Shown here piece by piece: positions 27,096 through 64,000 of a DNA stretch of 64,000 nt. Each line of letters opens with the position of its first letter. Position 1 is the first letter of the stretch. The position numbers and the translations under genes are program-made. A model generated the notes under the pieces. The model had not been told where the DNA came from. It made no database searches and saw nothing but the letters and a program-made list of their open reading frames with translations. Source of the stretch: Candidatus Spongiisociaceae bacterium. Its GTDB lineage: Bacteria > Actinomycetota > Acidimicrobiia > Spongiisociales > Spongiisociaceae. Location: the NCBI GenBank assembly GCA_965219685.1, contig CBDCOH010000002.1, positions 3,072,001 through 3,136,000 of the forward strand, given 5' to 3'.

Positions 27096-30000
27096 TTACG
27101 GCTGGGTCGTGGCGGTGACCGTGAGCAGGTAGGTGCCGAGCCACGCGGCGGTGGCGGTGGCCTCGATGTAGTAGGTGCCGTCGACGGTGGGAGTGAACGT
27201 GAACCGGCTGTTCTGGCCGTATCCGCCGTTGCCGGACACGGTGAGGTCCCCGGTGCCGGGCACGAGCGTTCCGGACTCGTCGTAGACGCCGCTTAGCATC
27301 GGGTCCACCAGCGTGTAGTCAGATTCCCACACCCCCGTCGGCGACAGCGACCCGGTCCACTGGCCCTCCATGTCGATCTGGTAGACGACCCCGGCCTGCA
27401 GCTCGACGCGGTGCCAGTCCCGCTCACCCGCGGAGTCGATCCTCGACAGCAGGCCCACACCCACCTCGAGGTCGCTGACAGTGGTGGTATCCGCGGCGGC
27501 GTCGGGCGCGGGGCGGGTGATCGTGACCGAGTAGTTCAGCTGCGTGACGCCGTCGGGCGCCAGCGAGGTCAACACAACGACTGTCACCGTCTCGGTGCCT
27601 GCCGCGCCGAGGTCCACCTGCCAACCCGCGGCCGGATCGATATCGGCAACGGCCGGCACGATCACCGTGCCCGCCAGCGTCGCGGCCGCCTCGATGGTCG
27701 CAACGGCAACGTCATCGGCGACCGTCACCGCATAGTCGTGGACGCCGCTGGAGAACCCCGGCACCAGGTCGTAGCCGGCGACCGACAGCGAACTCAACGA
27801 CGCGTCGTCCTCGATGGGGCTGTCCACGATGATCGAGAAGAAGCCCGCCGGTCGGCGCTCCACCGCGATGTGATAGGTGCCGGTGCGGGTCGCGGTGAAC
27901 TCCAACTGCCCCTTGGCAGCCGTGCCGTGCACGACGCCGACATCGAAGTACTCAGGGTCACCGTCCTGGTAGAACACGCCGCGGATGTACGCATCGAACA
28001 CGCCGCGGATGCCCGTATCGAGCTGATGGCGCGAAGCGACGCCGCCCAGCGACTCCACATTCACCACATACGTTCTGTTGGCGATGAGCTTCACGCTGAT
28101 CCACGTCGGAACCTGCCCGTGAGGGTACGCGCCGGGGTCGCTGTCGGCATGGCCTTTCGTGACCGTGTCGAGATCGATCACCCTGCTGCCGTCATAAGCC
28201 CAGAAGTACGACACGGCCTTGCTTCTGGCGGCCTGATCGTCTGCGACAGTGCCGTCAGGACGAACCGGGGACACCTCCACGGTGATCGTGTAGTCGCCCA
28301 CATGGAAGTCCCAGCCCCGGGCGTCGATGTAGTAGGTGCCGTCCGCGGCGGGCGCGACGACTATCGCGTCGGGATAGTCCACTATGTTGTTCGTGCTGAC
28401 GGGCTCGCCGCTGCCGGGCACCAGATTCCCGTGGGCGTCGTACACGCCGGCGATGTCGCGGTTCTCCCAGTGCCCCAGCGCGGCCTTGTTGGCGTGGTCG
28501 GGACCCATCGCGACCGTGTAGTACTGGCCGCCCTGCAGCTGCACCGCGATCCAGTCGCGGTCGTAGTGTCGGTCGATGCGGCCGTGGTAAGCGCCGCCGC
28601 CCACGACCACGCTCGCGGTCGTAGAGGTATCCGCGGCCACATCGGGCAACTCTGCCAGCCCGGTCACCGACAACGTGTAGGTGCCCAGCTCATCCGGAAA
28701 GGCGGAAGCGTCGTATGAGCGGCCGAACGCGAGTATGTAATAGTCGCCGTCGCTGGTGGGCGAGAACACCTGACGGTCGTTACGGGTGCCGTCGGCGTTG
28801 CGGACGGTGTGCACCGTGTCGATCGGGAACCGTTGACCGTCGCGGGGCCCCACATTCAGGCCCGGATCTTCGAGGGTGCCGTGGCCGGTGTCGGCGCCCA
28901 TCATCTCGAGCACATAGATCCGGTTCGCCTCCAGCGACACCCGCCACCAGTCATGGTCGCCGGTCCACAACTCCCCGTCGGCGCCTCCCGAGTCGTAGAA
29001 CACCTCCCACGGGTCGATGTCGATCTCGCTCTCGACGGAGTCGCCCACGGTGATTTGCTGCGACGTCGCGGGCGTGTCACCGACCTCGGGCAGCCTCTCG
29101 AGGATCTCCAGGTCGTACACGCCGTTGTGGTACAGCGACGGATCCGAGGCGCCGCGCCCCGCCGACACGTAGTAGGTGCCGCTTCGCTCCGGCACGAACT
29201 TCACGAACGCGTCACGCCTGCCGAAGTCGTAGGGACCGGACTCATAGATCTCGGTCCAGGACGGGAACACCCCGTCGTAGTCCCACTCCAGCTGCAGATC
29301 CCAACTCAAGTCCACCCAGCGGGTGTCGCCTCCGTCGTCGTTGGCGCTGCCCGCCACCAGCACGCCGTCGGCGTCGTAGACCCCATGAATCATCGGATCC
29401 GCCAGCGAGTCGTCCCAGCCGGTCTGCTTCATGTCGATGTAATAGCGGCGGTCGCGCACCATCTCCACTTTGAACCAGTCCCGGTCGCCGTCATCATGGA
29501 TGAAGCTTCGGGCGCTGGCGGAACGGTTGACGTTGCCGGTCCTGTCGCCGAGGTCCAGCACCGCGGCGGTCGTGGAGTCGCCCGCGATGTCGTCGGGCTC
29601 GGCCCGTACGGCGTGGACGGTGTAGGCCGTATAGGGCCGGCCGTCGCCGGCGATGGTGACAGTGATCGTGGTGACGCGCCCGGCGAGGTCGACCTGGTGT
29701 CCTTCGGTGAACGGGTCGGTGTCTGCGGGCAGGATCTCCACGCTGGCGCCCGCGCTGTCGTCGGCCGCCGCGGCCGAGACCGTGGTGACCGACACCGCCT
29801 CGGGCACCGCCGCCGCATAGCTGGACTGCTCGGGGGCGAAGTCGATCTCGATGCCGGACAGCTCCAAGGACGCCAGCCGGAACGGAACGCCGGGCATGTT
29901 GTAGGCGTAGAGCTTGCGGTCTTTGTCGTCGAGGACCCACATGGTGTCGCCGTCGGACCAGATGGACTTGGGATGGGTGTTGCCCGCGCCGGCGAGAGTG

Positions 30001-31790
30001 TCGAAGTCCAGGTTGGCCTGCCGTTCGCCGGTGTGCATGTCGTAAGCGGAGATCTTGACACGGTGTATGTCCAGCGCCCACATGGTGTCGCCGTCGGACC
30101 AGATGCTCCAGGCGAGGCGGGCGTCTATGTCACGATCGGGCCGCCGGTCGCCGCTGGCCAGGTCGAACGCGTAGATCGTGGAGATCCTGTCGTCGGAGAC
30201 CCACACGGTGTCGCCGTCGGACCACAGGTCCAGGGGCCAGCGCATGTCAGGGTAATCGAGCAGGCCGAAGCCTCCGCCGGCCAGGCGGTCGCCGCCGACC
30301 AGGTCGAACGCGGCCACCTTGGCGTCGTAGCTGTTGAGGACCCACATGGTCTCTTCGTTGGACCACACCCCGGCCCACCAATGATCCAGCCGGGCCCCCG
30401 ACTCGAGGGTGTCGATGTCTCGGTCGGCGAGGCGGTCGCCGCTGGCCAGTTCGTACGCGTAGACCTTGGCGTCCCGACCGACGTTGATCCACATGATGTC
30501 GCCGTCGGACCACAGACCGTACTCTGAGTAGTCCGACCGTCCTCCCAAGTAGTTCGACCATCCGCCCCGCCTGCGCACCGTGTCGTCTGCGTCGAGGTCG
30601 CGCTGGGGGTCTCGGGCGAACGCCGCGCCCCGGGCGCGGTCAACGGTGACGGTGTAGGTCTGGCGCCGGGTGCCGTCGGGGGACTCGACGGTGACGGTGA
30701 CGGTGTTGGCGCCCACCGCGAGGGCGACCTGGTGGCCGTTGGCGGCGTCAGCGTCGGCGTCGGCCGGCAGGACCGTCACCCCGGCGTCGGGATCGGCGGG
30801 GTCCGCGGTGACGGCGGTGGACGCCACCGCGTGAGCCACGTCGGCCTGGTAGCTGTGGACAGCCGCGTCGAAGGCGCCGATGTCGATACCGGAGAGCTCC
30901 AACGACGCCAGCCGCAACGGGAGGTCGTCGTCGGCGTCGAGGGACTCTGCTGTGTCGGGTTCGGTGATGGTGTTGGGTTGTCCGGTGGCGTACGCGGGCG
31001 CCGATCTCAAGGTGGGGGCGTCGCCGCTGCCGTAGAGTGCCTGCACCCGGTACTCGTACTCCACGCCGTCCTCGTCGGCGGTCAGATCTACATAGACGGT
31101 GTCGGCGGTGGCGGTGTCATCCACCAGCACCGAAACCTCCGCGCCGTCGCTGCCGCGATACAGCCGGTAGCCGCCCACCAGCTCGGTGTACAGCACCGGA
31201 GCGTCCCAACTCAGCACCACATGGCCCGGCGCGGCGGCCGCAACCAGATTCGACGGTGCCAACTCAGCCGTCGTGGGCTGCGACGGCGCGGACGGTGTCT
31301 CGTCGGGTGTGGCACCGCATGTCGGCGCCGTGTCATCGGCGGCGAACCCGACCACCTCAGCAGACCACTCACTCGAGGGGATGCCCTTCCCGAAGCGGGC
31401 CCGCACCATCACCTTGTACTCGCCGCCGGGCACCAGCCCCGCTATGACCGTCTCGGTGCCGGACTCGAACGTGTTCGTTATCGCGTCGCCGAGCTTGCCG
31501 CCGAACTCGCCGCCCACGTAGCCGCCATCGACTGCAGCGATCGCCACCCGATACGGACTCGACGGCGCGTCGGGATGCGGATCCCAGGACACCACCAACT
31601 CGCCGCGGCACTCCCCGGACGCCGCAGACACGCCCGTCACCGCCGCCGGGCGCACCACCTGCGCCAACACGTCACCGGCCACCAAACCCACAACACACAT
31701 CGCCACAACAACAACGACCACAGCCCCGCGACGGCGGCGTGAGCCTCCGCCCCTACGCGAAGACACCCTCACCGGCACCGCTGACGACAT
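27096..31790 (-). CDS. Large secreted adhesin-like protein (FN3, cadherin-like beta-sandwich, WSDG propeller repeats, PPC-like domains)
   Basis: Signal peptide; APSNL..LSWDAP..YEYRVQA; LASLELSG repeats; WSDGDTMWV repeats; DRDW..GTYY..A modules; GGAGG RBS before ATG 31790. Confidence 0.9.
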   Translation of the reverse strand: MSSAVPVRVSSRRGGGSRRRRGAVVVVVVAMCVVGLVAGDVLAQVVRPAAVTGVSAASGECRGELVVSWDPHPDAPSSPYRVAIAAVDGGYVGGEFGGKLGDAITNTFESGTETVIAGLVPGGEYKVMVRARFGKGIPSSEWSAEVVGFAADDTAPTCGATPDETPSAPSQPTTAELAPSNLVAAAAPGHVVLSWDAPVLYTELVGGYRLYRGSDGAEVSVLVDDTATADTVYVDLTADEDGVEYEYRVQALYGSGDAPTLRSAPAYATGQPNTITEPDTAESLDADDDLPLRLASLELSGIDIGAFDAAVHSYQADVAHAVASTAVTADPADPDAGVTVLPADADADAANGHQVALAVGANTVTVTVESPDGTRRQTYTVTVDRARGAAFARDPQRDLDADDTVRRRGGWSNYLGGRSDYSEYGLWSDGDIMWINVGRDAKVYAYELASGDRLADRDIDTLESGARLDHWWAGVWSNEETMWVLNSYDAKVAAFDLVGGDRLAGGGFGLLDYPDMRWPLDLWSDGDTVWVSDDRISTIYAFDLASGDRRPDRDIDARLAWSIWSDGDTMWALDIHRVKISAYDMHTGERQANLDFDTLAGAGNTHPKSIWSDGDTMWVLDDKDRKLYAYNMPGVPFRLASLELSGIEIDFAPEQSSYAAAVPEAVSVTTVSAAAADDSAGASVEILPADTDPFTEGHQVDLAGRVTTITVTIAGDGRPYTAYTVHAVRAEPDDIAGDSTTAAVLDLGDRTGNVNRSASARSFIHDDGDRDWFKVEMVRDRRYYIDMKQTGWDDSLADPMIHGVYDADGVLVAGSANDDGGDTRWVDLSWDLQLEWDYDGVFPSWTEIYESGPYDFGRRDAFVKFVPERSGTYYVSAGRGASDPSLYHNGVYDLEILERLPEVGDTPATSQQITVGDSVESEIDIDPWEVFYDSGGADGELWTGDHDWWRVSLEANRIYVLEMMGADTGHGTLEDPGLNVGPRDGQRFPIDTVHTVRNADGTRNDRQVFSPTSDGDYYILAFGRSYDASAFPDELGTYTLSVTGLAELPDVAADTSTTASVVVGGGAYHGRIDRHYDRDWIAVQLQGGQYYTVAMGPDHANKAALGHWENRDIAGVYDAHGNLVPGSGEPVSTNNIVDYPDAIVVAPAADGTYYIDARGWDFHVGDYTITVEVSPVRPDGTVADDQAARSKAVSYFWAYDGSRVIDLDTVTKGHADSDPGAYPHGQVPTWISVKLIANRTYVVNVESLGGVASRHQLDTGIRGVFDAYIRGVFYQDGDPEYFDVGVVHGTAAKGQLEFTATRTGTYHIAVERRPAGFFSIIVDSPIEDDASLSSLSVAGYDLVPGFSSGVHDYAVTVADDVAVATIEAAATLAGTVIVPAVADIDPAAGWQVDLGAAGTETVTVVVLTSLAPDGVTQLNYSVTITRPAPDAAADTTTVSDLEVGVGLLSRIDSAGERDWHRVELQAGVVYQIDMEGQWTGSLSPTGVWESDYTLVDPMLSGVYDESGTLVPGTGDLTVSGNGGYGQNSRFTFTPTVDGTYYIEATATAAWLGTYLLTVTATTQP

Positions 31791-32077
31791 CACACACGAC
31801 CTCCCCCGGCAAGAACCGCTGAACCATGCGTCAGAGGCCCAAAGGTGGCGACCCCCACCGCGAGACAGACCGATAGCCCTAGACCCCAAGCAAGGTCGCA
31901 CCCGGCCCATCCGCCCTGATCGGCGGGTACGTACTCATCCACTGTCGGAAACCAGATCCGCAAGGGAGTACCAACCGCCAAGGCCGCGAAGACCAGCGTG
32001 GCCACGGACCACACGTGACGGGCCGGGTTCCGCCTCGTCGCATCCGGTACCGCCCCCGGTGGGTTTCTCACCGTCAC
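31790..32077 (-). CDS. Small two-helix membrane protein coupled to the adhesin gene
   Basis: Two hydrophobic segments; TGATG stop/start overlap with 31790. Confidence 0.45.
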   Translation of the reverse strand: MTVRNPPGAVPDATRRNPARHVWSVATLVFAALAVGTPLRIWFPTVDEYVPADQGGWAGCDLAWGLGLSVCLAVGVATFGPLTHGSAVLAGGGRV

Positions 32078-32723
32078 TTACGCCACACGACAATTGCAAC
32101 CAGCCGACGCACCTTTCCGGGTCGGCCCCCACCGCGGATACTCGCTCGATACATGAATCACGCCTGCCGACTGTACCACACATAGCACGCTGCAATCCGC
32201 CCGGCACTGTGTGTATCCGTGACTATCAGACCCATATAGGTGTGTGTAAAACGGTGTCGGTCGGTGGGTTCGTCAACGTGGAGTCCATCCTTGTGGTGTA
32301 CGGGGGGTGCCCATGACACCGCATACAGATCAACAGTTCGGCACATCGCGAGGCCGGTGGCCTAATCCACCGGTATCGCAATTTCGGCAGCCGCCGTGAG
32401 CGTCAACGAAGTTTGCGACAAGGTCGTGTCCGCTACCAGCACTCGGCTGCCATGCCCCGCAGCGTCGTTGATCATCCGCCGGATCGCTTCTTTGTCGTTG
32501 GGAACCGCACCGGCGAGCAGTGCTTCACCGGCGGCCGACACCGCACCCGGTGTAGTGTCTGGCCTTGGCGACATCAACACCGACGAACACCTCGGGAGCG
32601 GGCTTAGGGCTCTCACCCACCAGTTGGTCCTCTTGTTGACGATCGCCTGACTGCAACTGCTTATAGGCGCCGACGCCTCAACCACATCTGCGAACCAGCC
32701 GCTGAACTTCGGTGGATGTCCCC

Positions 32724-32955
32724 TTTACCTTGTTGAGAGGCCCTGATGTGTGAGTATCGGGGCTGGTTGCTCGCCGCGGCGGGCAGGGCTTTGTCCCCCT
32801 GTCAGAGAGATGGCCTGGGGGGTGTTGCCACCCGCCGTGGTTGGGTACCTGCGACCTCTTACAGGGACATGCACCGACAGGGGGCTGGTTCGTAAAGTGG
32901 TTGAGGCGTTGGTGCCCTTGAGTAGCTGCCGAAGCTATTTGCGACTAGAGAGGAC
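32724..32955 (+). ncRNA. Predicted bridge RNA of IS110-D
   Basis: Target loop TGTCCCC (32792-98) and CTGGGGGG (32815-22); donor loop ACAGGGACA (32861-69) and GTAAAG (32892-97). Confidence 0.7.
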
Positions 32956-32961
32956 CAGTTG

Positions 32962-34163
32962 ATGGGTGAGAGCCCTACGCCCGCTCCCGAGGTGTTCGTC
33001 GGTATGGACATCGCCAAGGGCAAACATTACGCCTGTGCGGTGTCGGCCAGCGGTGAGGCGCTGTTCGCCCGGGCGGTTGCCAACGACGAAGCAGCGATCC
33101 GGCGGATGATCGACAACGCTGGGGACCATGGCCGCCCGGCGTTGGTGGTTGATATGACCTCGTCGGCGGCTGTGCTGACCCTCACCGTTGCCGCGGAGAT
33201 GGCGGTTCCGGTGGCTTATGTGACCGGTTTGGCGATGCGCCGAGCTGCCGACCTCTACGCGGGTGCGGCAAAGACCGACCCCAAGGACGCCCAGGTGTTG
33301 GCCGACTTCGCTTGGCGTAACGCGGATCGGCTGACCTGGACAGCTGTCACCGATGAGTTGTTGGCCCGTCTGCGGATCCTCAACGGTCGGGACACAGATC
33401 TGGCCGCCGACGCGACTCGGGCCGCGAACCGGCGGAGAGACGCCCTATTAGCCGTGGTCGGCGGCTCTGGAGCGTGCCGTGGGAGAAAGGCTGATGTCGG
33501 TGCCCGGTCTCAGAGCCGCGCTGGTGAGATACGCCACCCCGTCGGCGCTGCGAACGGCCGGCAAAGCCCGGGTGCGGACGCTGATCTCCAAGCGCTCCAA
33601 ACGCACCGCCAACACACTCACCGACCAGATCTCGGCTGCGCTCGGCTCCCAGACCGTCACGGTGCCAGCCGAGGAGACCTGGGGCGAGACAATCGGCGAC
33701 TTGGCCGCCGACCTGGACCGGATCATCAACCGCCGCCAGCGGCTCGAAGCTGACATCGAGCAGGCCTTCTTGGAGCATCCGCTCAGAACAAGTCCTCAAC
33801 AGCATGTGCGGGTTCGGGCCCCGCACCGGCGCTCGAACCCTCGCTGAGATCGGCGACCCGCACCGTTTCGCCAACCCAGGCCGGCTAGCCGCCTACGCCG
33901 GGCTAGCCCCCGTGGACCGCCAATCAGGCCGCAGCCACCGAACAGGGCGATCACGAGGCGGTAACCACCGACTCAAGAACGCCATGTTCATCGCCGCGTT
34001 CGTTGCTACCCAACACGACCCCGACGCCCGTGCCTACTACCTACGCAAACGCGCCCAGGGCAAAGAACACAACGCCGCGGTCATCTGCGTCGCCCGCCGA
34101 CGCTGCAACATCATCCTGGCCATGCTCAAAACCCAAACGCCCTACCAACCCCGCCAATCCTAG
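32962..34163 (+). pseudogene. IS110 recombinase with two frameshifts
   Basis: VFVGMDIAKGKH, AKTDPKDA, LAAYAGLAPVDRQSG, GGNHRLK. Confidence 0.9.
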
Positions 34164-34578
34164 AAACTGCCCGAAGCGGCTTGACAACAAGACAGGGACA
34201 CCCCCCCCCCAGAGGTCGCAGGCACCCAACCACGGCGGGTGGCAGCACACCCTAGGCCATCTCGGTGACAGGGGAATTGAGCCGTGCCCACCGTGGTGAG
34301 CACGGTGGTGATGGAGTTGCTGCTCGTCTCCACGGACGAAGTGATACGGCCCCGTGTAGACAAGCGAAGGGACGGGTCTTTGTCGGGGTGCTGGTGTTGC
34401 TGGGCGGGGATGGTGCTGCTGGTGGCTCGGTGTGTGGTCGGACGGCGGTTGTGCCTGTGGTCATACGATTTCGGAGTGGGTCCGGGGGCGGATGAGGTCA
34501 CGATTGTGTGGTGGTTCGCTTATCGCGGCGGGCGATGACGTTGTTGCCGGTGGTCTGCTGTGTACGAAGTCGGGCGTG

Positions 34579-37500
34579 TCAGTTGGTGTTGAGGGCTCTG
34601 CTGAGGAAGGTGGCCATCTCCGCTCGGGTGACGGGTTGGTCGGGGCAATAGCGGAGGGGGTCGGTGGCGCAGCCGACGGTGATTCCAGCAGCGGCGAGAG
34701 CGTCGATGTCGGCAGCGTGTGTGTTGTTCTCGGTGTCGGTGAAACCTGCGGCTGTTTCGGCGGGAGGTAGGTTGAACGCTCGGACCAGGAAGCTGGCCAT
34801 CTGAGCTCGGGTGACGGGTTGGTCGGGGCAGTAGCGGAGGGGGTCGGTGGCGCAGCCGATGGTGATGGCTAGGTCGGCGAGTTTTTCGGTGTAGCGGATC
34901 CACCACTGTTGTTGGTTTATGTCGTGGAAGCGGGAGGTGCCTGTTGTTGGGGGGTCGTGATCTAGGGCGCGGATGAGCCATATGGCCATGACCCAGCGTT
35001 TTAGCGGCTGGTGGGGGCAGAACCGGTCTTGGTCGCATTCGGTGTCGATGAAGATGCCGTCTTTGGCTAGGGTCGCGATGGCTGGAGTGTGTGTTCCTTC
35101 GGGGGTGACATCGGCGAAGCTGGTTGTGTGCCCGACGGTGACTACAGTTTCTGCTGCGATCGTGGCTGTTTTGGCTGGTCCGTGTCCGTCGGTGTAGGCA
35201 GCGGCTACGCGTAGGTAGTGGGTTTCGTCGCCGTCGGCGGGGGTGTAGGCGTTTGCCGCGGCGTTTCGGATGGGTGCCCATGTGGTCTGGTCGGACGATT
35301 TCTCCCAGGTCCAGGTGAGGTTGCTTATCCCACCATCGGGATCGGAGAGGGCAGCATCGAGCGGGGTGCCTGTGCGGGGTGTGGGAGCGGAGAGGGTGAT
35401 GTGGCCGCGTTCGTCGGTGTTCGTGACGATGATTGTTACCAGGATGTAGTCGTCTTGTCGGGTGTCGGGTTCACCGTCGGGGTCTTTGCTGTCGTGCACG
35501 CCCACGCCGACGGTGTGCCTGGTCCTGGTTTCGTAGTCCAGAGGCGCTCTGGTTCGGATCTGGCCGGTTGACGAGTCGATTTCGAACATGTCCCGGTCGT
35601 GTCTGACGAGCGTGTAGGTGAGGGGATCGTCGTCGGGATCCGATGCTGTTACCGGCCCGCCGATGTTCACACCGGGCGCAGTGTTCTCGGCTACCGAGCG
35701 GAGGGTTCGGGAGCCTTCATCGAACGCGGGCGAGCCGGCGTCCTCTACGGGACCTCCCCCGCCTCCGCCTCCGCCGCCTCCTCCGTCGTTGCCGGTGGTG
35801 GTGGTGGTAGTAGTAGTAGTAGTGCGTGTCGTGGTGACGGTTATGGTGACATCGGTGCTTACTCTGGCGCCGTGGGGGTCGGTTGCTTCGACCCTAAGCG
35901 TGTAGCGGGGTTGAGTTAGGCGGTCTATGACGGTGTCAGGACCGACACGGATCTGGCCGGTGTGGACATCGATCGTGAACGCCGGGGCGCCTTCTTCGAA
36001 GAGTCGGTAGGTAAGCGCGTCGCCGTCGATGTCGGTGGCCTCCACCGGAGACCCGACTGGTGTGCCCGGGGGCGACCCTTGGGTGATAGAGCGGGTTGTG
36101 AAGGTTCCCGGGAACTTGGGTTGGTCGTTGACCGGGGCGACCGTCACGATCACGTCGGCTTCGTGAGTTAAGCGACCGTCGGAGGCTGCGTAGGTGAAGA
36201 TGTCTCGGCCGTTGAAGTCGTTCCTAGGCGTGTAGGTGACCGTGTTGTCGGGCTGCACGCTGATGCGGCCGTTGATGGGGCCGTCGCGCAGCGAAACGGT
36301 GAGGGGGTCGCCTTCGGGGTCGCTGTCGTTAGCCAGCACCGAGACCGTCACGGGGGTGTCCTCAGCGGTCGTGGCCGTGTCGGGTCGGGGGGCGGGCGCT
36401 TCGTTCACGTTGGTGACCTCGATCGTCACCGAGACAGCGCCGCTGCCGCCTGAGGGGTCGGTTGCGGTAACCGTTGCAGAGTACGACCGTGGCGGGGTCT
36501 CGTAGTCGAACACCGCGTGGGCTGCGACCCGGATCTGGCCTGTGGAGGCGTCGACGTCGAAGAGGTCGTCTACCGTTGCCAGCTCGTAGGTCAATCTGGA
36601 GGAGTCACCGGGGTCGGGGTCGGTGGCCCTGACCACTGCACCGACCGCGGAGGCAGGGGTTGAGTTCTCCGGAACCGAACGCACGACATTGACCGCCCCG
36701 AAGTCCGGGACGCGGTTCGTGCCGCTGGGCGCGGCCCGCGTCGGGTACCGAGCGCGGACGGTGGCGGTGTCGTCGTTCGAACCGGCGCCGTCGCGGTAGG
36801 TGGCTGTGACTCGAAGGTCATGGCCGACATCGGCGGACACCGGTGTGTAGCTGGCGGCTGAGCCGATGTCGGTCCAGGTACCGCTCTGCAGACGCTGCCA
36901 GGACCATGACAACACCACGACCGAACCATCGTCATCAGACACCGAAGCATCCAGGGCGGCACCGACCTGGGGCTGAGACGACGAGAGGATCACTGTCCCA
37001 GGCTCGTCGACGTTGACGACGTTGACGACCAGGTCAGCACCGACCGGTTCGCTGGCACCCGCACGGGCTTCCACTGTGACGTCGTAGACACTGTCACGGT
37101 TGCCGTCGGTGGGACTCTCGAAGTCGGGGGGCCGTAGAAAGGTGAGCACACCGCGGTCGCTGATCTCGAACACGGCACTGTCGGCACCGCTCAGCGACCA
37201 CCTGATCGGGGCTTGCTCGGGATCGGTCGCGGTGAACGCCGCCGCCGCGGTGGTGTCGTTCTCGTTATAGCTCACCACAAACGACCCAGAGCGACTCTCG
37301 ATGGTCGCGTCCTCGTCCATGTCGGTCACCGTAACGGACACCTCATGGCTGGCGGTGGCACCGTCGCGGTCGGAAGCCTCCACCGTGATGACATGAACAT
37401 TGTCCCTGCCAGCATCGGCAGGTCTCTCGAAGTCCGGCGGTGTCCGGAACCGCAACACGCCACCATTGATGCTGAACAGGTCAGCGTCAGCGCCGGAGAG

Positions 37501-40500
37501 CGACCAGATGATCGTGCCGCCTTCGGGGTCGACGGCTGTAAACGTGAAAATCACATCTGTGCCGTTCTCAGCAAATCTGAAATCGGCGGCTGCGGTAATC
37601 ACCGGCGGCGCGTTCACGTCGACCAACCTGAGGGTCACCACGCCGACACTGTCCCCGCCGTGCCACAGAGTCACATCGACGGTCTCGCCGTCGTCGTCGA
37701 CAGCGTCCTCGACTGCGGCGACCCGCAAACCCGTCGAGCGGTCCCCGGCGGGCAGTGTCAACGTGTATGGCGCCGCGATGTCCCGGCCGTTGAGGTCGGT
37801 GACAGCGAAGTCTTCGGCGATAACAGCGCTGCCGGCAAAGCTCGCTGCGAACCTCTGATCGTTGGTGAAGGTGACCCCACCGGTGTCCACCGTGACCACC
37901 GCCGTCTCGCCCTCGACAACCTGGGCGACGTCTGCGGACAGCCTGAAGGCCGCCGTGTCGTCGCTGGATACGTCCACCGTCGCGAAATTGGGTGAGCCGG
38001 TCAAATAGGTTGGAGGGTCTGCGGTGTCGGCTACGACCAGTGCCGTCACCCGACCCGGGTCCTCCACCACCCGGTCGTCGACGGTCGCCACTCGTAACTC
38101 CACGGTGTCATCACCCGACAAAAACGTCAACATCGACGGTCGAGCCGTGCCGAGGACCGTGCCGACTTCGGTGACCTGGACTCGCACGGTGAGCGGCTCG
38201 GTCAGCGGGCTCCCCAGCGGGGCGGTGCGTACCAGTGTGAACACCGCGTCGTTGCCTTCCGACACGCCGATGCTCGCAGGGGTGATCGTGACCTCGGGCC
38301 CCTCCAAGTCACTGGCAGGAATCGTCACCGTCCGCGAACCCAGCGACGCACCAGATTGGGCAAGCCGGGCGCTCAACAAGACGGTCTCGGCGAGTTCTCC
38401 CTCGTCGTCGTCCACCGCCTCCAACCTCAGCTGAACCGAGATGTCTCCCGCGGCCAGAGTGACCGTGTACGGCTGCGACAGCGTCCGACCCTGGGAGTCT
38501 TTCAACACGAAATCGACAGCATCGGCCGACCCGGCCACGTCGATGGTGATAGCCTGGTCCACAGCGAACTTCACGCCGTTGTTGATGATGAGCGTCAACA
38601 CGGTTTCGCTTCCCTCGGAGACCTCCCCGCTTGAGGCTGTGAAGTCGAACAGGGCACTGTCAGTGTTGGTGATCGTGACCGTGGTTGTGGCCCTCGATCC
38701 CACCGCGAATCCCGGAGGCAGTTGACCGATACTCAACTGGACCGTTTCAGGACCCTCCACCCAATCGTCGTCGACGGCTTCGAAAGACGCCGACTTGAAG
38801 TGCTCACCCGCCTTGATACTGACCCCAGAATCCATCGAGAAGTCATCGTCCGAGGCGGTGTCAGATGACGAAACGACCGGGAGGAACACCTTCTGGAGGC
38901 TGCGGTGGGTAGGGTCAACCACCACCGGCACGCCAATCGTCTCCCCCTCGCGCACGGTGTAACGGGGCGACGCGAACCTCACCCTGATCGGTGGGCCTAT
39001 CTCCCGCGTCGCGGGCACGTCGGACAGGACAGTCCCGTCAGCCGCGCAGATCCCACCCGCGTCGCACGCCCTGCCCGCAACCACCGCGACGGTGACATTG
39101 CCAACACCGGTCGGAGACAACGACAACAGGTAGGCGTTCGCACGCTCACCCCCTACCAGATGAGGAGCCACAGCCGTCACTGTCGCACCCCCCACACTCA
39201 ACGACGGACTCGACACCGAAAAATCCACAACTGGCCGACTGAACGCCACCACCACCTGCACCACATCACCCGGACCGGTATGCGACACAGATGTGTGACT
39301 GCTCGACGGGAACCGGGCCGACAGCGGCTCGGGACTCCTAGCCAGATACTCCGGCCGCATGACAGTGCCGCGAGTCCTGTCGCTGGGCCCGTCGATGTGC
39401 AGCCACTCCTGGCCGGTGTCCGGATCGGCCTGGGTGAAGACCTTCGCAGGCGAAGGTTTGATCGGGTTCCGTGGGCTCGCTCCTCCCCAGCTGATCAGCC
39501 AATGACCGTTGCTCAACGCCGCTACATGCCCGGACCGGTAACCCAGCTCACCCTCATCGTTATCTCGTTTTCCGAACAGCGCATGGTCCCGCACGAACAC
39601 TGCGTCGCCGTTGTCTAGGTCCAGCGCGTACTCCAGGGCGCGGCTGTAGATGTCGGGGGTGCGCAACAGAGTCTCACGGGTCCAGGGATTGATAGTGCAC
39701 TGCACACCGTTGTCGTAGAGGATCAGGTTCCCGCCGGGTAGCAGCGACGAGCCGTGCTGGCCGCAGAACTGTCCCTCGGGATCGCCCACGATGTCCAACG
39801 GCGGCGGTCCGAGATCGCGCTCAGCCCACTCGGCGTCGGTCAGATTCGTGGGTCCCACCCTCCATACCACATCACCGGTCACGGCGTCGATGGCCAGCAC
39901 TCTCGAGCATCCCCGCATCGACGCGATGATGAGCCCGTCGATCATCTGGAGCCCGTTCAGATGGGCATAGTCGCCGTCGCTGGGCGGGAAGAAGTGCTGT
40001 GTGCAGTCCTCCAGCGGCATGTGGTCCCACGAGTTCCAGTTGAACGTCGCCCGCCCGCCCGGGGCGACGATCTGGAACGCCGAGTCCTCCACATACACCT
40101 CAGACCCATACGGCTGCCCGTTCTCGTCATTGAACGACAGATGGGAAAGGTCACGCTGGGTGGGCTCGTAGGCCATCATCATGTGGTGACCGTTGTCGAG
40201 CAACCGGAACTCGTGGGCGTCCTGGCGTGTCAGAGGCGACACCGTTCTCGCCACCCTGATCAAGTCCAGGTTCTCGTTCAGAACGTAAGCGAATCGATGG
40301 ATATAGACATAGCGGGGCTGTCCATTGACGTCGGGATAGAACCGAAAGTACGACAAAGCCCCCGTGTCCATCTTGCGAACGAAACGAGGAACCCCGTTGC
40401 CGTCCACCGCGAACAGGATCCCGCTCAGCGAAGAGAAGAGGATCAGATCGTCGAGCACCTCCGACTCGCCCAGAGGCTTCTCAACCCTGATCGGCACGAC

Positions 40501-41940
40501 GTCATCGCCAAGGCAGTGCAGGATGTATTGGGTTTGGGCGCCGAGGCCGTCGGCGAGGGAGATGCGTACCACGCTGTAGGCCGTGACCGGCACTGTTGCG
40601 GTCACCGGGGTGTTCGCGCCCGGGTTTGTGTACTGGACGCCGTCCACCGAGATGCGGCTCGACCCGGAAGCGGGACGCATCGTCAGCGTCATCGTGTCGC
40701 TGTTGTTGCAGCCCACCGAGTAGTGCAGGATCTGCGGGTCGAACACGGGGCGCATCCGCCGCCACGCGTCTTCGCTGCTGGTAGCCGCGTCCGAGTCGTC
40801 GGTACTGATCGACAGGCCATTCAACTGGTCCGCAGCGACCACCTCCGGAGCGACTGTCTGGGCTTGCGCTCCGCTGCCGTGGCGGTCGCTGTAGGACACA
40901 CCGACCCGCAAGAAGCTGCCTGCGTCGGCCGCGGTGGGTGTGTAGCTCGACGAGTCCGCACCCGAGATCGTGGCCCACTGCTGATATCCGGTGCTGCGTT
41001 CCCACACCCAGGTCCCCGAGTCGGCCACCACCCCGTCGGGATCGCTCAACGTGGCGGTGACCGGCACACCAACACGAGGCCTCTTCGTCGAAAGCGACAC
41101 CGTACCGGGCTCGTCCACGTCTGTCACCGTCACCGTCACCGTCACCGCGGAAGCAGCCGTCTCCGACGGTGACGACGGCAACAGCGTCACCACATAAACG
41201 TTGTCGCCGTCGCCGTCGACCGGCGCCTCGAAATCCGGCGGTTTCGAAACGATCACCGGCGACACCGCACCAAGGGCAAACCGCAGAGCGCCCAACGGTT
41301 CATCAAGGCTGAAAAGGGCAGCGTCGGCGCCGCCCAGAGACCACACGATGCCGTCACGGTCCTGATCCGACGACGCCGCGAACGTCGCCACCCGCCCCCA
41401 GCCGTTCTCCTCAAAACCTACCGTGACAGGTCCCTCGACAGCCTCAAGCTCGATGACGTTGCTCACAGTCACCAACACATCCGCGGTGGCATCGTTGACT
41501 CCGTCGCTGACCTGCACCGTCAACTCATACACACCATCGGTGTCAGCGTCGCCAGGTAACTCAAAATCAGGAGCCGCCACGAACTCCAACACCCCCACCA
41601 TGCTCAAAGAGAACAACGCCGAGTCCGCACCGCCCGCCACCGACCAAACCAAATCACCCGAGGCCGTGTCAGCATCGGACGCAGTCAGAGTCGCCACCGA
41701 CGTAACCCCCTCATCCACCACGAACGGACCCGGGCTCGTGACCACCGGAACAGCCGCGCTCTGCCCCAACACCGGCGAAACCGACAACCCACCAACACCC
41801 AGCAACGCCAACCCAGCGGCGCCCAAAACCGACCGCAGCCACCCCAGGCTCCGACCCCCGCCACCGAACCGGTTCCCCAACCAGCCGATAAGGCTCCCGG
41901 ACCGGCTTCCACAGCCGAGACTTGAGAAATCGTGGATCAC
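34579..41940 (-). CDS. Giant surface protein: cadherin repeats, arylsulfotransferase-like propeller, Calx-beta, Ig-like domain, C-terminal SLH
   Basis: PDFE/DYE cadherin motifs; DAHEF, DYAHLNGL, FCGQH, LILYDNG ASST motifs; VTRAQMASFLVRA; start uncertain (ORF extends to 42015). Confidence 0.9.
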   Translation of the reverse strand: MIHDFSSLGCGSRSGSLIGWLGNRFGGGGRSLGWLRSVLGAAGLALLGVGGLSVSPVLGQSAAVPVVTSPGPFVVDEGVTSVATLTASDADTASGDLVWSVAGGADSALFSLSMVGVLEFVAAPDFELPGDADTDGVYELTVQVSDGVNDATADVLVTVSNVIELEAVEGPVTVGFEENGWGRVATFAASSDQDRDGIVWSLGGADAALFSLDEPLGALRFALGAVSPVIVSKPPDFEAPVDGDGDNVYVVTLLPSSPSETAASAVTVTVTVTDVDEPGTVSLSTKRPRVGVPVTATLSDPDGVVADSGTWVWERSTGYQQWATISGADSSSYTPTAADAGSFLRVGVSYSDRHGSGAQAQTVAPEVVAADQLNGLSISTDDSDAATSSEDAWRRMRPVFDPQILHYSVGCNNSDTMTLTMRPASGSSRISVDGVQYTNPGANTPVTATVPVTAYSVVRISLADGLGAQTQYILHCLGDDVVPIRVEKPLGESEVLDDLILFSSLSGILFAVDGNGVPRFVRKMDTGALSYFRFYPDVNGQPRYVYIHRFAYVLNENLDLIRVARTVSPLTRQDAHEFRLLDNGHHMMMAYEPTQRDLSHLSFNDENGQPYGSEVYVEDSAFQIVAPGGRATFNWNSWDHMPLEDCTQHFFPPSDGDYAHLNGLQMIDGLIIASMRGCSRVLAIDAVTGDVVWRVGPTNLTDAEWAERDLGPPPLDIVGDPEGQFCGQHGSSLLPGGNLILYDNGVQCTINPWTRETLLRTPDIYSRALEYALDLDNGDAVFVRDHALFGKRDNDEGELGYRSGHVAALSNGHWLISWGGASPRNPIKPSPAKVFTQADPDTGQEWLHIDGPSDRTRGTVMRPEYLARSPEPLSARFPSSSHTSVSHTGPGDVVQVVVAFSRPVVDFSVSSPSLSVGGATVTAVAPHLVGGERANAYLLSLSPTGVGNVTVAVVAGRACDAGGICAADGTVLSDVPATREIGPPIRVRFASPRYTVREGETIGVPVVVDPTHRSLQKVFLPVVSSSDTASDDDFSMDSGVSIKAGEHFKSASFEAVDDDWVEGPETVQLSIGQLPPGFAVGSRATTTVTITNTDSALFDFTASSGEVSEGSETVLTLIINNGVKFAVDQAITIDVAGSADAVDFVLKDSQGRTLSQPYTVTLAAGDISVQLRLEAVDDDEGELAETVLLSARLAQSGASLGSRTVTIPASDLEGPEVTITPASIGVSEGNDAVFTLVRTAPLGSPLTEPLTVRVQVTEVGTVLGTARPSMLTFLSGDDTVELRVATVDDRVVEDPGRVTALVVADTADPPTYLTGSPNFATVDVSSDDTAAFRLSADVAQVVEGETAVVTVDTGGVTFTNDQRFAASFAGSAVIAEDFAVTDLNGRDIAAPYTLTLPAGDRSTGLRVAAVEDAVDDDGETVDVTLWHGGDSVGVVTLRLVDVNAPPVITAAADFRFAENGTDVIFTFTAVDPEGGTIIWSLSGADADLFSINGGVLRFRTPPDFERPADAGRDNVHVITVEASDRDGATASHEVSVTVTDMDEDATIESRSGSFVVSYNENDTTAAAAFTATDPEQAPIRWSLSGADSAVFEISDRGVLTFLRPPDFESPTDGNRDSVYDVTVEARAGASEPVGADLVVNVVNVDEPGTVILSSSQPQVGAALDASVSDDDGSVVVLSWSWQRLQSGTWTDIGSAASYTPVSADVGHDLRVTATYRDGAGSNDDTATVRARYPTRAAPSGTNRVPDFGAVNVVRSVPENSTPASAVGAVVRATDPDPGDSSRLTYELATVDDLFDVDASTGQIRVAAHAVFDYETPPRSYSATVTATDPSGGSGAVSVTIEVTNVNEAPAPRPDTATTAEDTPVTVSVLANDSDPEGDPLTVSLRDGPINGRISVQPDNTVTYTPRNDFNGRDIFTYAASDGRLTHEADVIVTVAPVNDQPKFPGTFTTRSITQGSPPGTPVGSPVEATDIDGDALTYRLFEEGAPAFTIDVHTGQIRVGPDTVIDRLTQPRYTLRVEATDPHGARVSTDVTITVTTTRTTTTTTTTTTGNDGGGGGGGGGGGPVEDAGSPAFDEGSRTLRSVAENTAPGVNIGGPVTASDPDDDPLTYTLVRHDRDMFEIDSSTGQIRTRAPLDYETRTRHTVGVGVHDSKDPDGEPDTRQDDYILVTIIVTNTDERGHITLSAPTPRTGTPLDAALSDPDGGISNLTWTWEKSSDQTTWAPIRNAAANAYTPADGDETHYLRVAAAYTDGHGPAKTATIAAETVVTVGHTTSFADVTPEGTHTPAIATLAKDGIFIDTECDQDRFCPHQPLKRWVMAIWLIRALDHDPPTTGTSRFHDINQQQWWIRYTEKLADLAITIGCATDPLRYCPDQPVTRAQMASFLVRAFNLPPAETAAGFTDTENNTHAADIDALAAAGITVGCATDPLRYCPDQPVTRAEMATFLSRALNTN

Positions 41941-41987
41941 GCTACCGGACTGTACCGCCGTCCGACACCACCACCAAGGACTATAGC

Positions 41988-42005
41988 GTGTGTAACAGTG
42001 ACGGA
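41988..42005 (-). promoter_or_regulatory. Conserved upstream box TCCGTCACTGTTACACAC followed by a TATAGT -10-like element
   Basis: 17/18 identical to 52387-52404, at a similar distance from the start codon. Confidence 0.55.
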
Positions 42006-42139
42006 ATGACCCCACAGCCGTGTAGACTATGTGGGTTTATGAGCGACAGTGTCGAGAAGGGTCAGAACAGCGGCTACCAGCCACAAAAGAACAGAGCCGA
42101 CCCCTGTGGCGTACCTGGGGGTGAGGACTCCTCTTGGCG

Positions 42140-44992: not shown

Positions 44993-45013
44993 CCTAATGG
45001 ATCAGTGCTCCTA

Positions 45014-46967
45014 CCCGAATTTGGCGGGTGTTTTGCGTTTTGCCTGGTCAGAGGGGGTTTGGCGGTGGGGTGTTTCCACTACATGGGCGGTGTGGGGGGC
45101 CGGTGGTGGGGTTAGGGGGTTAGGTGATGGTGGGGTTGTCCCAGGTGCGGGTGTCTGCTCCGATGGCGGTGAGGATTCGGGTTTGCAGGGGGCTGCGCCG
45201 GCTGGTGACCTGGATTCGGCGGCGGTTGGCGGTGAGTTGGTGGCGGCGGATTCGGTTGAGGTCGCGCAGGGCTCGGGCGGCGGTGAGGTGCTGGTCGCCG
45301 AGGTCGGGATCGCGGATGTCGGCTGCTGCGAGGGCGTGGTTGATGAGGGTTTCGATTAGGGCGGCGTAGACGCAGACCGCGACGTGGCCGCGGACTCGTT
45401 GTTCGGTCCAGTGCCTGACGGGGCGGAGCCTCAGGAAGTCTTTGAGGACCCTGAAGCGGGTCTCGACTGCTTGCAGTTGGCGGTAGTGGTCCACGACTTG
45501 GGCGGTGGGGGCCTGGGCGGGTGTGAGGCTTGTGGCTAGCACGTAGCGACCGGCGAGGAGTTCTTCGTATGTGTGGGTGTCTTCGTTGTAGTGGTAGAGA
45601 AACCGTCCAGCTCCGATCTCGATGTCGAAGAGCCGTCCGGCGCCGCCGGAGGCGAGGATACGCTGCGCGGCCGCCCCGATTTTGGCGGGGTCCTTCAGCT
45701 TGCCGGCGCGGACGCGCAGCTCCAGCGCCCGCAGTTTTGCCTCCGCCGCGGCGATGATGTGGGCTGTGCGGGCGGCGTCTCGGCGGGCGCGGCCGTCGGA
45801 CTCGACCACAACCGCCCGGGTGCCGTCCTCGAGGCTGATATCAGCGGCGCGGCAACGGTACTGGTCTATGTCGACCCAGACGGTGTCGTCGTCGATGGCC
45901 GCAAGGGCTTGGTTGCTGATACGGTCACGACGCAGTTTCGTGGCCAATATGTGGTCGAACCCGGCTTCGGCGACCACTTCGATGTTGGCTGCCGACATCA
46001 GGCCCCTGTCAGCGACCACACAGATACGGCCCACCGCGAACCTCTCGGCCAGGTCGCTCAACACTGCCGCCAGGGTGATGACATCGGCGGTGTTGCCCGA
46101 GAACACCCGATGAGCGATCGGGATCCCGTCGGAGGTGCACAGCAGGCCGATCACTATCTGGGGCCGATCAGCACGATGGTCCCGCGAGTAACCGAACGCC
46201 CGGGATGGGAAACGCCCAGACGGGCGGGTCGAACCCTCGAAATATGTGGAAGTGAGGTCGTAGCAAACCAGCCGCAGGTCCAGGTTCGTCAGGTCGCACA
46301 ACCGCGAATACAGATGTGTCTCCGTGTCGTCCTTGGAAGCGGCGACCGCGTCCAGGGCCCGGTAGTACTGATCAATCGACGGAGCCGACCAGCCCTCGGG
46401 CATGACCACATCCGCCCCGGCCCACTCAACCAGTTGCCGCTTCGAGCACGGTGCCACCAACCGGTTGGCCACCATCGCGAATACCGCATGCTCCAAGGCC
46501 TTCGCGCCCCGTCTAGCGCCGACCTGAGCGAACCACTCGTCGAGGCCGAGCCGCTGCCACACCGCCCACACCGCCGCTACCGCCCCCACCCCAGGCGCCC
46601 CCTCAGCTTCCAACGCCCCCACATCGACACGTTCGCGGCGTAGATGACGCTCCAGCGCGGCCACGATCCGTTCCAGCTGGCCGGACTCCCGCAAAGCGGT
46701 CACCTCCCCCAGCCGCAAAAGAGTCCGGTGACCGACCTTCGACCCTTGGCGGAAAGACTCCACCAAAGACAAATACTCGTAAACCTTGTCGCCCCTGCGA
46801 CGGCGGGTCGTCTTTACGAACATGGCCAGAACAATACCACTAACAGCCCATCTAATCAACGATATGTCGCCCCTACATTCTCGCACCGGAACGGTGTTCT
46901 ACACCACAAAACCCCAGGTCAGCGAACCAACCACCCCCACAAAGCCCCCCAACCCGCCAAACTCGGG
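45014..46967 (-). mobile_element. IS1634-family element, complete, with 5-bp TSD TCCTA
   Basis: IRs CCCGA(A/G)TTTGGCGGG; TCCTA at 45009-13 and 46968-72. Confidence 0.92.
45120..46823 (-). CDS. IS1634-family DDE transposase
   Basis: YDLTSTYFEG, FGYSRDHR, VVADRGL, VETRFRVLK..RPVRHW; probable start MFVKTT. Confidence 0.93.
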   Translation of the reverse strand: MFVKTTRRRRGDKVYEYLSLVESFRQGSKVGHRTLLRLGEVTALRESGQLERIVAALERHLRRERVDVGALEAEGAPGVGAVAAVWAVWQRLGLDEWFAQVGARRGAKALEHAVFAMVANRLVAPCSKRQLVEWAGADVVMPEGWSAPSIDQYYRALDAVAASKDDTETHLYSRLCDLTNLDLRLVCYDLTSTYFEGSTRPSGRFPSRAFGYSRDHRADRPQIVIGLLCTSDGIPIAHRVFSGNTADVITLAAVLSDLAERFAVGRICVVADRGLMSAANIEVVAEAGFDHILATKLRRDRISNQALAAIDDDTVWVDIDQYRCRAADISLEDGTRAVVVESDGRARRDAARTAHIIAAAEAKLRALELRVRAGKLKDPAKIGAAAQRILASGGAGRLFDIEIGAGRFLYHYNEDTHTYEELLAGRYVLATSLTPAQAPTAQVVDHYRQLQAVETRFRVLKDFLRLRPVRHWTEQRVRGHVAVCVYAALIETLINHALAAADIRDPDLGDQHLTAARALRDLNRIRRHQLTANRRRIQVTSRRSPLQTRILTAIGADTRTWDNPTIT

Positions 46968-47156
46968 TCCTATGGCACGCCACCCCGTGAGGGCTACAAG
47001 GGGTCTCACCAACCGGCCGGGGTACGATCTATGTTCAGGAGTCGGGTTCCAGGAGCATCCAACTCACCGGCCAGCCAGCTGGACCACCATACCCTCCCAG
47101 AAACACCATAAGAAGTGGTGGACCCCCTTAGGAGCATCCGGGCGGTTCAGTTGTAG

Positions 47157-62350: not shown

Positions 62351-62374
62351 TAGGAGCATCCGGGGCGGTTCAGA

Positions 62375-64000
62375 CCCGAGTTTGGCGGGTTGGGGGGCTT
62401 TGTGGGGGTGGTTGGTTCGCTGACCTGGGGTTTTGTGGTGTAGAACACCGTTCCGGTGCGAGAATGTAGGGGCGACATATCGTTGATTAGATGGGCTGTT
62501 AGTGGTATTGTTCTGGCCATGTTCGTAAAGACGACCCGCCGTCGCAGGGGCGACAAGGTTTACGAGTATTTGTCTTTGGTGGAGTCTTTCCGCCAAGGGT
62601 CGAAGGTCGGTCACCGGACTCTTTTGCGGCTGGGGGAGGTGACCGCTTTGCGGGAGTCCGGCCAGCTGGAACGGATCGTGGCCGCGCTGGAGCGTCATCT
62701 ACGCCGCGAACGTGTCGATGTGGGGGCGTTGGAAGCTGAGGGGGCGCCTGGGGTGGGGGCGGTAGCGGCGGTGTGGGCGGTGTGGCAGCGGCTCGGCCTC
62801 GACGAGTGGTTCGCTCAGGTCGGCGCTAGACGGGGCGCGAAGGCCTTGGAGCATGCGGTATTCGCGATGGTGGCCAACCGGTTGGTGGCACCGTGCTCGA
62901 AGCGGCAACTGGTTGAGTGGGCCGGGGCGGATGTGGTCATGCCCGAGGGCTGGTCGGCTCCGTCGATTGATCAGTACTACCGGGCCCTGGACGCGGTCGC
63001 CGCTTCCAAGGACGACACGGAGACACATCTGTATTCGCGGTTGTGCGACCTGACGAACCTGGACCTGCGGCTGGTTTGCTACGACCTCACTTCCACATAT
63101 TTCGAGGGTTCGACCCGCCCGTCTGGGCGTTTCCCATCCCGGGCGTTCGGTTACTCGCGGGACCATCGTGCTGATCGGCCCCAGATAGTGATCGGCCTGC
63201 TGTGCACCTCCGACGGGATCCCGATCGCTCATCGGGTGTTCTCGGGCAACACCGCCGATGTCATCACCCTGGCGGCAGTGTTGAGCGACCTGGCCGAGAG
63301 GTTCGCGGTGGGCCGTATCTGTGTGGTCGCTGACAGGGGCCTGATGTCGGCAGCCAACATCGAAGTGGTCGCCGAAGCCGGGTTCGACCACATATTGGCC
63401 ACGAAACTGCGTCGTGACCGTATCAGCAACCAAGCCCTTGCGGCCATCGACGACGACACCGTCTGGGTCGACATAGACCAGTACCGTTGCCGCGCCGCTG
63501 ATATCAGCCTCGAGGACGGCACCCGGGCGGTTGTGGTCGAGTCCGACGGCCGCGCCCGCCGAGACGCCGCCCGCACAGCCCACATCATCGCCGCGGCGGA
63601 GGCAAAACTGCGGGCGCTGGAGCTGCGCGTCCGCGCCGGCAAGCTGAAGGACCCCGCCAAAATCGGGGCGGCCGCGCAGCGTATCCTCGCCTCCGGCGGC
63701 GCCGGACGGCTCTTCGACATCGAGATCGGAGCTGGACGGTTTCTCTACCACTACAACGAAGACACCCACACATACGAAGAACTCCTCGCCGGTCGCTACG
63801 TGCTAGCCACAAGCCTCACACCCGCCCAGGCCCCCACCGCCCAAGTCGTGGACCACTACCGCCAACTGCAAGCAGTCGAGACCCGCTTCAGGGTCCTCAA
63901 AGACTTCCTGAGGCTCCGCCCCGTCAGGCACTGGACCGAACAACGAGTCCGCGGCCACGTCGCGGTCTGCGTCTACGCCGCCCTAATCGAAACCCTCATC
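62375..64000 (+). mobile_element. Second IS1634 copy, inverted relative to the first, runs off the window (transposase from about 62519)
   Basis: IR CCCGAGTTTGGCGGG; alternate-frame ORFs identical to those of 45014-46967. Confidence 0.92.

Follow-up and report, generated by a model that had tools for sequence, protein, structure and literature searches.

An IS110-family insertion sequence nested in reverse in the donor-binding loop of a decayed relative in Candidatus Spongiisociaceae

The DNA described here (the window) is a stretch of 64,000 nucleotides (nt) from Candidatus Spongiisociaceae bacterium, positions 3,072,001 to 3,136,000 of the forward strand of contig CBDCOH010000002.1 in assembly GCA_965219685.1. 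The genome, of 4.4 Mb and 65% G+C, is referred to as G000 and the contig as C2, so that the window is C2:3072001-3136000. Located between two genes for giant cadherin/fn3-type surface proteins is an insertion sequence (IS), element D, which interrupts an older relative, D' (Table 1). D is a member of the IS110 family by its domains, the fold of its leader and the relations between its guides and its ends. It is the sole full copy in the genome, where D-like fragments occur at C2:2372930 (referred to as D2), 3047637, 3136332 and 4373646.

A leader of 235 nt precedes the recombinase gene of D. The N-terminal DEDD/RuvC-like transposase domain (PF01548) is matched by residues 14-164 of the frame at 32959-33753 (E 4.4e-36), and the C-terminal Tnp domain (PF02371, Transposase_20) by the frame at 33804-34163 (E 2.6e-24). 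The closest relative is L001, identical to D in 1377 of 1486 columns; compared with it, D carries one extra base near 33456 and another near 33789, and these divide the gene among three frames; the recombinase frames of L001 and L005 are open, at 425 and 390 amino acids (aa). With its two frameshifts D is therefore a pseudogene and not an active copy. Contigs from sequencing run X1 give no cover of 33460-33523, and the first frameshift, like the length of the C10 run to the right of D, thus rests on the assembly. The only inverted repeat of D is a subterminal one of 7 nt, and both junctions lie within C-runs, in which the core cannot be delimited.

The flanks of D are the two parts of a single relative, D', a minus-strand element which begins at about 34368 and ends at about 32334. 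When 32300-32723 and 34205-34500 were joined and reverse-complemented by script, the product aligned to D over 491 nt with 376 identities (77%), 14 gaps and an E-value of 3e-72, and the alignment was colinear over the insertion point, from 34302 of D' down to 32334. A repeat search found the same relationship as inverted arms, pairing 32768-32859 with 34211-34302 (92 nt, 85%), 32549-32633 with 32949-33033 (86%) and 32319-32546 with 33035-33262 (75%). At the join D' reads CTCT, a G-run and then ACATCC, where D reads CTCTTACAGGGACATGC. The left end of D' is placed by reading the sequence, from weak similarity beginning near 34368, and is approximate. D' is about 75% identical to any relative, its target loop being closest to that of L014, and its homology stops after about 100 codons; a Pfam search with its 107-aa frame at 32362-32685 gave no match at E 0.01. 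An uninterrupted D' allele was sought in 20 relatives and in G000, with the 5' DNA of D' and its outer flank as the query, and none was found; the sole matches, to other elements, were in the conserved loop region (query 259-350), and the length of the run before insertion could not be read.

It might be supposed that nothing was inserted, and that the inverted arrangement arose from a fold-back in the assembly, or because two copies had undergone inversion or recombination with each other. Inverted homologous arms do flank a repeat-rich region, and the right junction, at a homopolymer, is bridged by none of the sequencing-run contigs examined. Against this, the arms are 75-86% identical rather than identical, the flanks rejoin as one colinear leader with nothing missing or extra except the run, and D carries both canonical family ends exactly at the joins. 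One contig of X1, made by another assembler, spans the left junction (32500-32772) with 0 differences, although X1 is possibly the source sample and this bridging is therefore not independent support. Since the flanks diverge from D by 23%, the fold-back artefact, which the initial annotation had named as one of two findings that would undo its proposal, is ruled out, and an origin without insertion in any of these forms is scarcely credible.

Table 1. Features of D, D' and their surroundings (window coordinates unless marked C2).
Feature	Position	Strand	Remarks
Element D, IS110 family, 1477 nt	32724..34200	+	left end begins TTTACCTTGTTG, right end closes GACAGGGACA; ends common to at least 40 relatives
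D recombinase gene, pseudogene in three frames	32959..34163	+	PF01548 and PF02371 in separate frames
D bridge-RNA region	32760..32940	+	a pair of stem-loop domains, both with an internal loop
Left target guide region of D (TTTGTCCCCC)	32790..32799	+	5' side of first internal loop
Right target guide of D (CTGGGGGG), then TGT	32815..32825	+	TGT complementary to the ACA that closes the right end
Left donor guide of D (ACAGGGACA)	32861..32869	+	same sequence as the final 9 nt of D's right end
Right donor guide of D (GTAAAG)	32892..32897	+	reverse complement of a C followed by the opening bases of the left end
D' 3' segment	32334..32723	-	rest of leader (donor loop 3' side) and decayed N-terminal part of recombinase, truncated near 32334
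Remnant of D' left donor guide	32716..32723	-	ends ...ACAT on D' strand; + strand is the left target half ATGTCCCC
C10 run, core and right target half	34201..34210	.	G-run of D' left donor guide on D' strand
D' 5' segment	34211..34368	-	left end, through own target loop (34247-34279), to 5' stem of donor loop
Flanking genes	27096-31910 and 34579-42015	-	1604-aa and 2478-aa proteins; cadherin-like, fn3, Big_9 and arylsulfotransferase domains
1957-nt IS, identical copies	45013-46969; 62373-64000, running past the window to C2:3136328	+; -	terminal inverted repeats of about 15 nt; 588-aa DDE transposase (PF01609)

The leader of D folds as a bridge RNA would be expected to fold. RNAalifold, applied to 31 leaders, gave 46 consensus pairs, 16 of them with compensatory changes, and the leader of D folded singly has a z-score of -3.47; a scan of 32300-34500 against Rfam 15 at E 1 gave no match, which may just mean that there is no model for the clade. 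Loops were assigned by the geometry of the donor-binding loop of IS621, as given in the accessible text of Durrant et al. 2024 (PMC11208160). Across the relatives the left donor guide changes together with the right end, three variants being seen (ACAGGGACA, ACAGGAACA and ATAGAAACA), and the right donor guide tracks the left end, GTAAAG occurring with TTTACC starts and GTAAGG with CTTACC starts. Since the two sides of the loop in the second domain match the right and left ends in this way, the loop of the second domain is the donor-binding loop, and what D interrupts is the 5' side of that loop in D', where the left donor guide lies. Exceptions to the rule linking right donor guide and left end are L027, L066 and a GCAGATG-type subgroup (L011, L013, L014, L023, L043, L070, D' and D2). 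Members of this subgroup have GCAGATG, or a one-base variant of it, at the position of the right donor guide on the 3' side of the donor loop, and keep the usual TTTACC left ends (TTAACC in L070). In L006, L007 and L008 the donor loop, about 150-230 nt into the leader, contains a unit of about 21 nt, including the left donor guide, of which L006 has three tandem copies and L007 and L008 have two each.

In nearly all members the left guide of the first loop closes with C5, and the right guide consists of G6. RNAalifold pairs these two guides with each other, their mutual complementarity being a consequence of the homopolymer target. Next to the right target guide of D stands a TGT, at the position which the handshake guide occupies in IS621 according to the accessible text of Hiraizumi et al. 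2024 (PMC11208158), and by analogy it may act as one. In both loops the left guide is followed by TG, which is at odds with the inferred core.

The target of the clade could be read from 76 loci, which provide 48 distinct left flanks and 34 distinct right flanks with those of D included. The hosts of these relatives are metagenome-assembled genomes labelled Acidimicrobiia, several of them Candidatus Spongiisocius or Spongiisociaceae. Leaving aside the site of D, the 47 left and 33 right flanks have only a C-run in common and lie in unrelated surroundings. At least 3 C directly precede the left end in 40 of 44 scored left flanks, four of the 48 having been dropped because guide or flank did not end in C, and 29 of the 34 right flanks open with 6-11 C. 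For the bases just upstream of the C-run, agreement between left guide and flank was 35, against 18.4 (sd 4.3) in shuffled pairings (n = 44; 2 of 5000 shuffles reached 35, p 0.0004); on the right side agreement was weak, at 21 against 16.3 (p 0.12). The excess of left-side agreement over shuffled pairings indicates that the bridge RNA is used. As far as guides and flanks can tell, what the clade recognises is in the main a run of about nine C or more.

Such runs are few in G000, which has 225 of C7 or more and only 8 of C9 or more, the flank of D included. Their lengths are bimodal, with 210 runs of C7, 7 of C8 and 2 of C9, followed by C10, C11, C15, C16 twice and C17. Long runs are found at C2:2940976-2940992, 2373596-2373611, 3216008-3216023 and 2341496-2341510, the C16 at 2373596 adjoining the remnant D2. 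The C17 run at C2:2940976 is empty in G000 and is occupied in sequencing run X6 by a D-like copy which has neither of the extra bases of D and whose 25 comparable right-flank bases are identical to the flank of the C17 site.

Several family loci are arranged in ways of their own. Two copies stand head to tail at L036:4190-4240, with two C between the ACA of one right end and the following TTACC, or one C if the left end is taken from CTTACC; this tandem junction looks like a circle junction and fits the right donor guide of that subgroup. At L050:4400-4445 and L073:5410-5455 a right end is followed by a C-run, a G-run and then the apparent inverted end of a different element (ending TTACA), so that two elements meet by their tails in a C-run/G-run palindrome; both examples come from the same genome. 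L006-L009 have identical 30-nt flanks on both sides, and the right flank of L010 differs by a two-base shift.

The site in D' resembles what the guides of D would specify. On the plus strand it reads TGT, C4, D, C10 and AG, while the guides of D call for TGT and C5 on the left and, as the reverse complement of the right guide, C6 and AG on the right. TGTCCCC, at 32792-32798 in D, matches ATGTCCCC in the left flank (32716-32723) over 7 bases of the left target guide; the right flank, where the C-run at 34201-34210 is followed by AG, gives CCCCCCAG against the reverse complement of the right guide (32815-32822). The left donor guide of D' is alone among 45 family leaders in having G6 or more, and the donor loop of D itself has G3 and no long run. 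Before insertion the run would have comprised some 12-13 C, if one or two core bases were duplicated. That D' served instead as a pseudo-donor site for the donor loop of D was considered and rejected: the join is 5' of ACA, and the orientation would be opposite to the one which that reaction is expected to give.

What the initial annotation had observed is upheld by these results. It had placed D in reverse in the donor loop of a relative, which agrees with the alignment of the joined flanks and the inverted arms and, as to the loop, with the consensus fold and the covariation of the loop sides with the element ends. It had noted that D' and D differ at the join, as they do, and that TGTCCCC and CTGGGGGG match the D' version, and both words are present in D and at the flanks. 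Its warning that the C-run makes the exact junction ambiguous is equally sound.

The explanation which we favour, with about three chances in four of being correct, is that a poly-C-seeking IS110 element struck the G-run of a dead relative and that the hit on kin was incidental. D belongs to a clade of bridge-RNA IS110 elements in sponge- and coral-associated Acidimicrobiia whose target loop specifies a homopolymer, the C5 of the left guide and the G6 of the right together defining a C-run of roughly nine or more. D', the older of the two and now a truncated remnant, would have borne an unusually long G-run in the DNA for the 5' side of its donor-binding loop, the opposite strand of which would have read TGT, about 12-13 C and AG. 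The bridge RNA of D would have paired with this run, its left guide anchored at the TGT boundary, and the recombinase would have inserted D there, in an orientation necessarily opposite to that of D' because the run is G on the sense strand of D'. The two frameshifts of D would have been gained afterwards. A hit on D' is not improbable, given that long C-runs are few in the genome and that the region is crowded with IS110 copies. Insertion into the C-run under the direction of the guides is the well supported part of this account.

The crowding is considerable. C2:3.02-3.15 Mb, a segment of 130 kb which contains the whole window, holds 17 of the 23 matches to PF01548, the IS110 recombinase domain, in the genome; several of these are broken by frameshifts, and the segment is a graveyard of insertion sequences. 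This abundance lends something to the thought that D came to lie in D' mainly through local hopping in the graveyard, with one half-site (TGT and the C's) recognised and the right guide idle. The weak agreement of right-side guides with their flanks over the family would fit such an event, as would the AG, which is out of register given about 13 C, and half-match insertion has been reported for IS621, according to the accessible part of a preprint (10.64898/2026.08.31.748434). The right guide of G6 nevertheless seems to be used, to judge from the long C-runs with which most right flanks in the family begin. Half-match or local-hopping insertion is unlikely, and as an explanation it differs from incidental insertion into a C-run in degree only.

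A bolder reading, put forward in the initial annotation as kin targeting with self-avoidance, is that the left target guide of the D clade (TGT and C5) evolved to fit the antisense of the left donor guide or right end of its relatives (G-run and ACA). D-type elements would then favour insertion into, and so the disabling of, the bridge RNA of competitors, sparing their own loop. The idea has attractions. Words of 8 bases match on the left and 8 on the right at the D' site, and the right ends all finish in ACA, so that the G-run of any relative's donor guide supplies TGT automatically. By the same token, since all family right ends, and hence left donor guides, end in ACA, the TGT match is not independent of kinship. 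The matches at the site, and the lack of a long run in D's own loop, are as the annotation had stated; it is kin targeting as a property of the clade that fails to appear elsewhere. Among the 76 loci not one had a reverse-strand match to the leader of D in its flanking DNA, of which as much as 3 kb was covered, at a sensitivity at which D' itself is detected in the genome. The left-junction pattern, searched over 401 genomes of the class, matched only G000, the window's own, and a stricter junction pattern returned 10 stretches from a metagenome collection, none of which was real or had a C-run with a continuing family left end, though that pattern required exact words and diverged cases would escape it. 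In runs X5, X6 and X7 the D-like copies are found at different C-runs with other flanks, the arms of D' being without cover there. None of the other nine D-type copies which share the guide has TGT before its C-run (L001, L005, L012, L023, L040, L041 and L064 scored, L043 and L070 by eye), and TGT, found in only about 1 of 16 left-guide types in the family, is compatible with chance. The G-rich donor guides of relatives reach only G5, too short for the right guide. Because D' alone of the 45 leaders has so long a run, no set of D'-type loops exists that could serve as a target, and the self-avoidance reduces to D's own loop having G3 rather than a long run. The unrelated targets of the other copies, which share a C-run and nothing else, are what the annotation had itself said would speak against it. 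The kin-targeting and self-avoidance reading is not supported beyond the single event. That such tuning evolved is most improbable; so is a habit of disabling competitors in this way, and there is equally little reason to see here a guide-encoded interference between insertion sequences, in which a rival's donor recognition is destroyed by insertion at its bridge-RNA gene or right end.

Several points nonetheless weigh against an incidental hit on a C-run. Only a single event is known, and the word incidental rests on an absence from collections in which the copies of the family have not been counted. The D' site fits the guides of D better than most family sites fit theirs: the TGT on the left is a run of 3, exceeded among 44 only by L006 (5) and L014 (4) and equalled by L066, and the five matched bases beyond the C-run (TGT and AG) would be expected about once in 1000 for a random C-run. 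The fit is also imperfect, with C4 in the left flank against C5 in the guide and a right run of 10 which sets AG out of register with the right guide; if the run was of about 12-13 C, the TGT and AG boundaries cannot both have been in register with the guides, although the run lengths may have changed since insertion or have been misassembled. The left target guide of the D clade, moreover, comes close to reverse-complementing the left donor guide of a G-rich subgroup (9 of 9 bases in D2, 8 in L070 and L004), which also speaks for kin targeting. A systematic link between the target loop and the donor loops of relatives could be read from this, but the resemblance is probably due to chance. No element occupies the genome's other TGT-C7-AG site (C2:3159739). 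Finally, the account does not explain why D' had so long a G-run.

That empty site, C2:3159739-3159755, is the only other one of its kind in the genome and lies in an integrase-like coding region beside a multi-copy repeat; that it might be kin to a bridge RNA was rejected, as it has no similarity to a leader.

In four of the relatives the reverse complement of the left target guide recurs as the left donor guide within one bridge RNA: D2 (G000:C2:2372930-2373100, 9 of 9 bases), L004, L011 and L070. The two loops of such an RNA could therefore pair with each other; that this silences decaying copies is conceivable but improbable. No right end was found at the usual distance within the retrieved loci of these four, L011 being cut by a contig end and L004 interrupted by about 1.8 kb.

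Breaks in other family copies were also noted. The D-like left-end fragment at C2:3136332 is interrupted, within its left target guide, by the second copy of the 1957-nt IS; the break was considered as a second insertion into kin and rejected, the inserted element being a DDE (PF01609) IS with terminal inverted repeats. Another left-end fragment, at C2:4373646-4373704, breaks off inside its left target guide, past TTTGTCCC, and is followed by no repeat element. It is tempting to speculate that DNA encoding a guide, by construction a perfect half-site for the element itself, might cause breaks of the latter kind. In L004, L050, L073 and D2 breaks or insertions recur in different genomes at positions of about 725-730 and 1347 of D, within the recombinase gene. 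The aligned pieces overlap by 6 nt at 725-730, which suggests that other insertion sequences hit an AT-rich word.

The locus is a clean natural case, since target and donor are both known and each of the four guide segments of the bridge RNA can be compared with them, and it defines an IS110 clade which seeks homopolymeric C-runs in uncultured sponge- and coral-associated Acidimicrobiia. With a homopolymer as target the choice of site depends on the length of the run, which could interest those who engineer bridge recombinases. Kin targeting, if true, would matter for competition among insertion sequences; the evidence presented here does not carry the idea. The literature searched contained no description of a poly-C-targeting IS110 element or of an insertion in a relative's bridge-RNA loop, although the supplementary motif tables of PMC11208160 might list such orthologues.

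A number of parallels can be drawn with known systems. Among IS110/IS1111 elements, IS4321 and IS5075 target the terminal repeats that bound Tn21-type transposons, while members of the IS1111-attC group occupy the attC sites of integrons. D resembles both as a site-specific IS of this superfamily lying in a defined sequence of another mobile element. It differs from them in that a single event stands against many independent sites, and in that the other sites of its clade are not in mobile elements. Expanded IS110 loci, which grow by repeated insertion into occupied regions and by tandem duplication, are the subject of a preprint (10.64898/2026.08.14.744561). To go by the accessible text of that preprint, the locus of D is similar in that copies pile up beside and within each other with no evident target immunity, and the tandem copies of L036 and the repeated donor-guide units of L006-L008 offer further parallels. 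The growth described there is at the same site and by tandem duplication, and insertion in reverse in the donor loop of a relative does not feature in that part of the text. The closest comparison is with the bridge RNA of IS621 and IS110, as set out in the accessible text of Durrant et al. 2024 (PMC11208160) and Hiraizumi et al. 2024 (PMC11208158). D departs from it in its homopolymer target, in a crossover which cannot be placed, in the TG which follows the left guide in both loops and is off the inferred core, in the want of an Rfam match and in being a pseudogene. It shares with it the pairing of a DEDD/RuvC-like domain with a Tnp domain, a 5' leader of about 235 nt with two domains and internal loops, donor guides which covary with the element ends, and three bases after the right target guide which, like a handshake guide, are complementary to the terminus of the right end.

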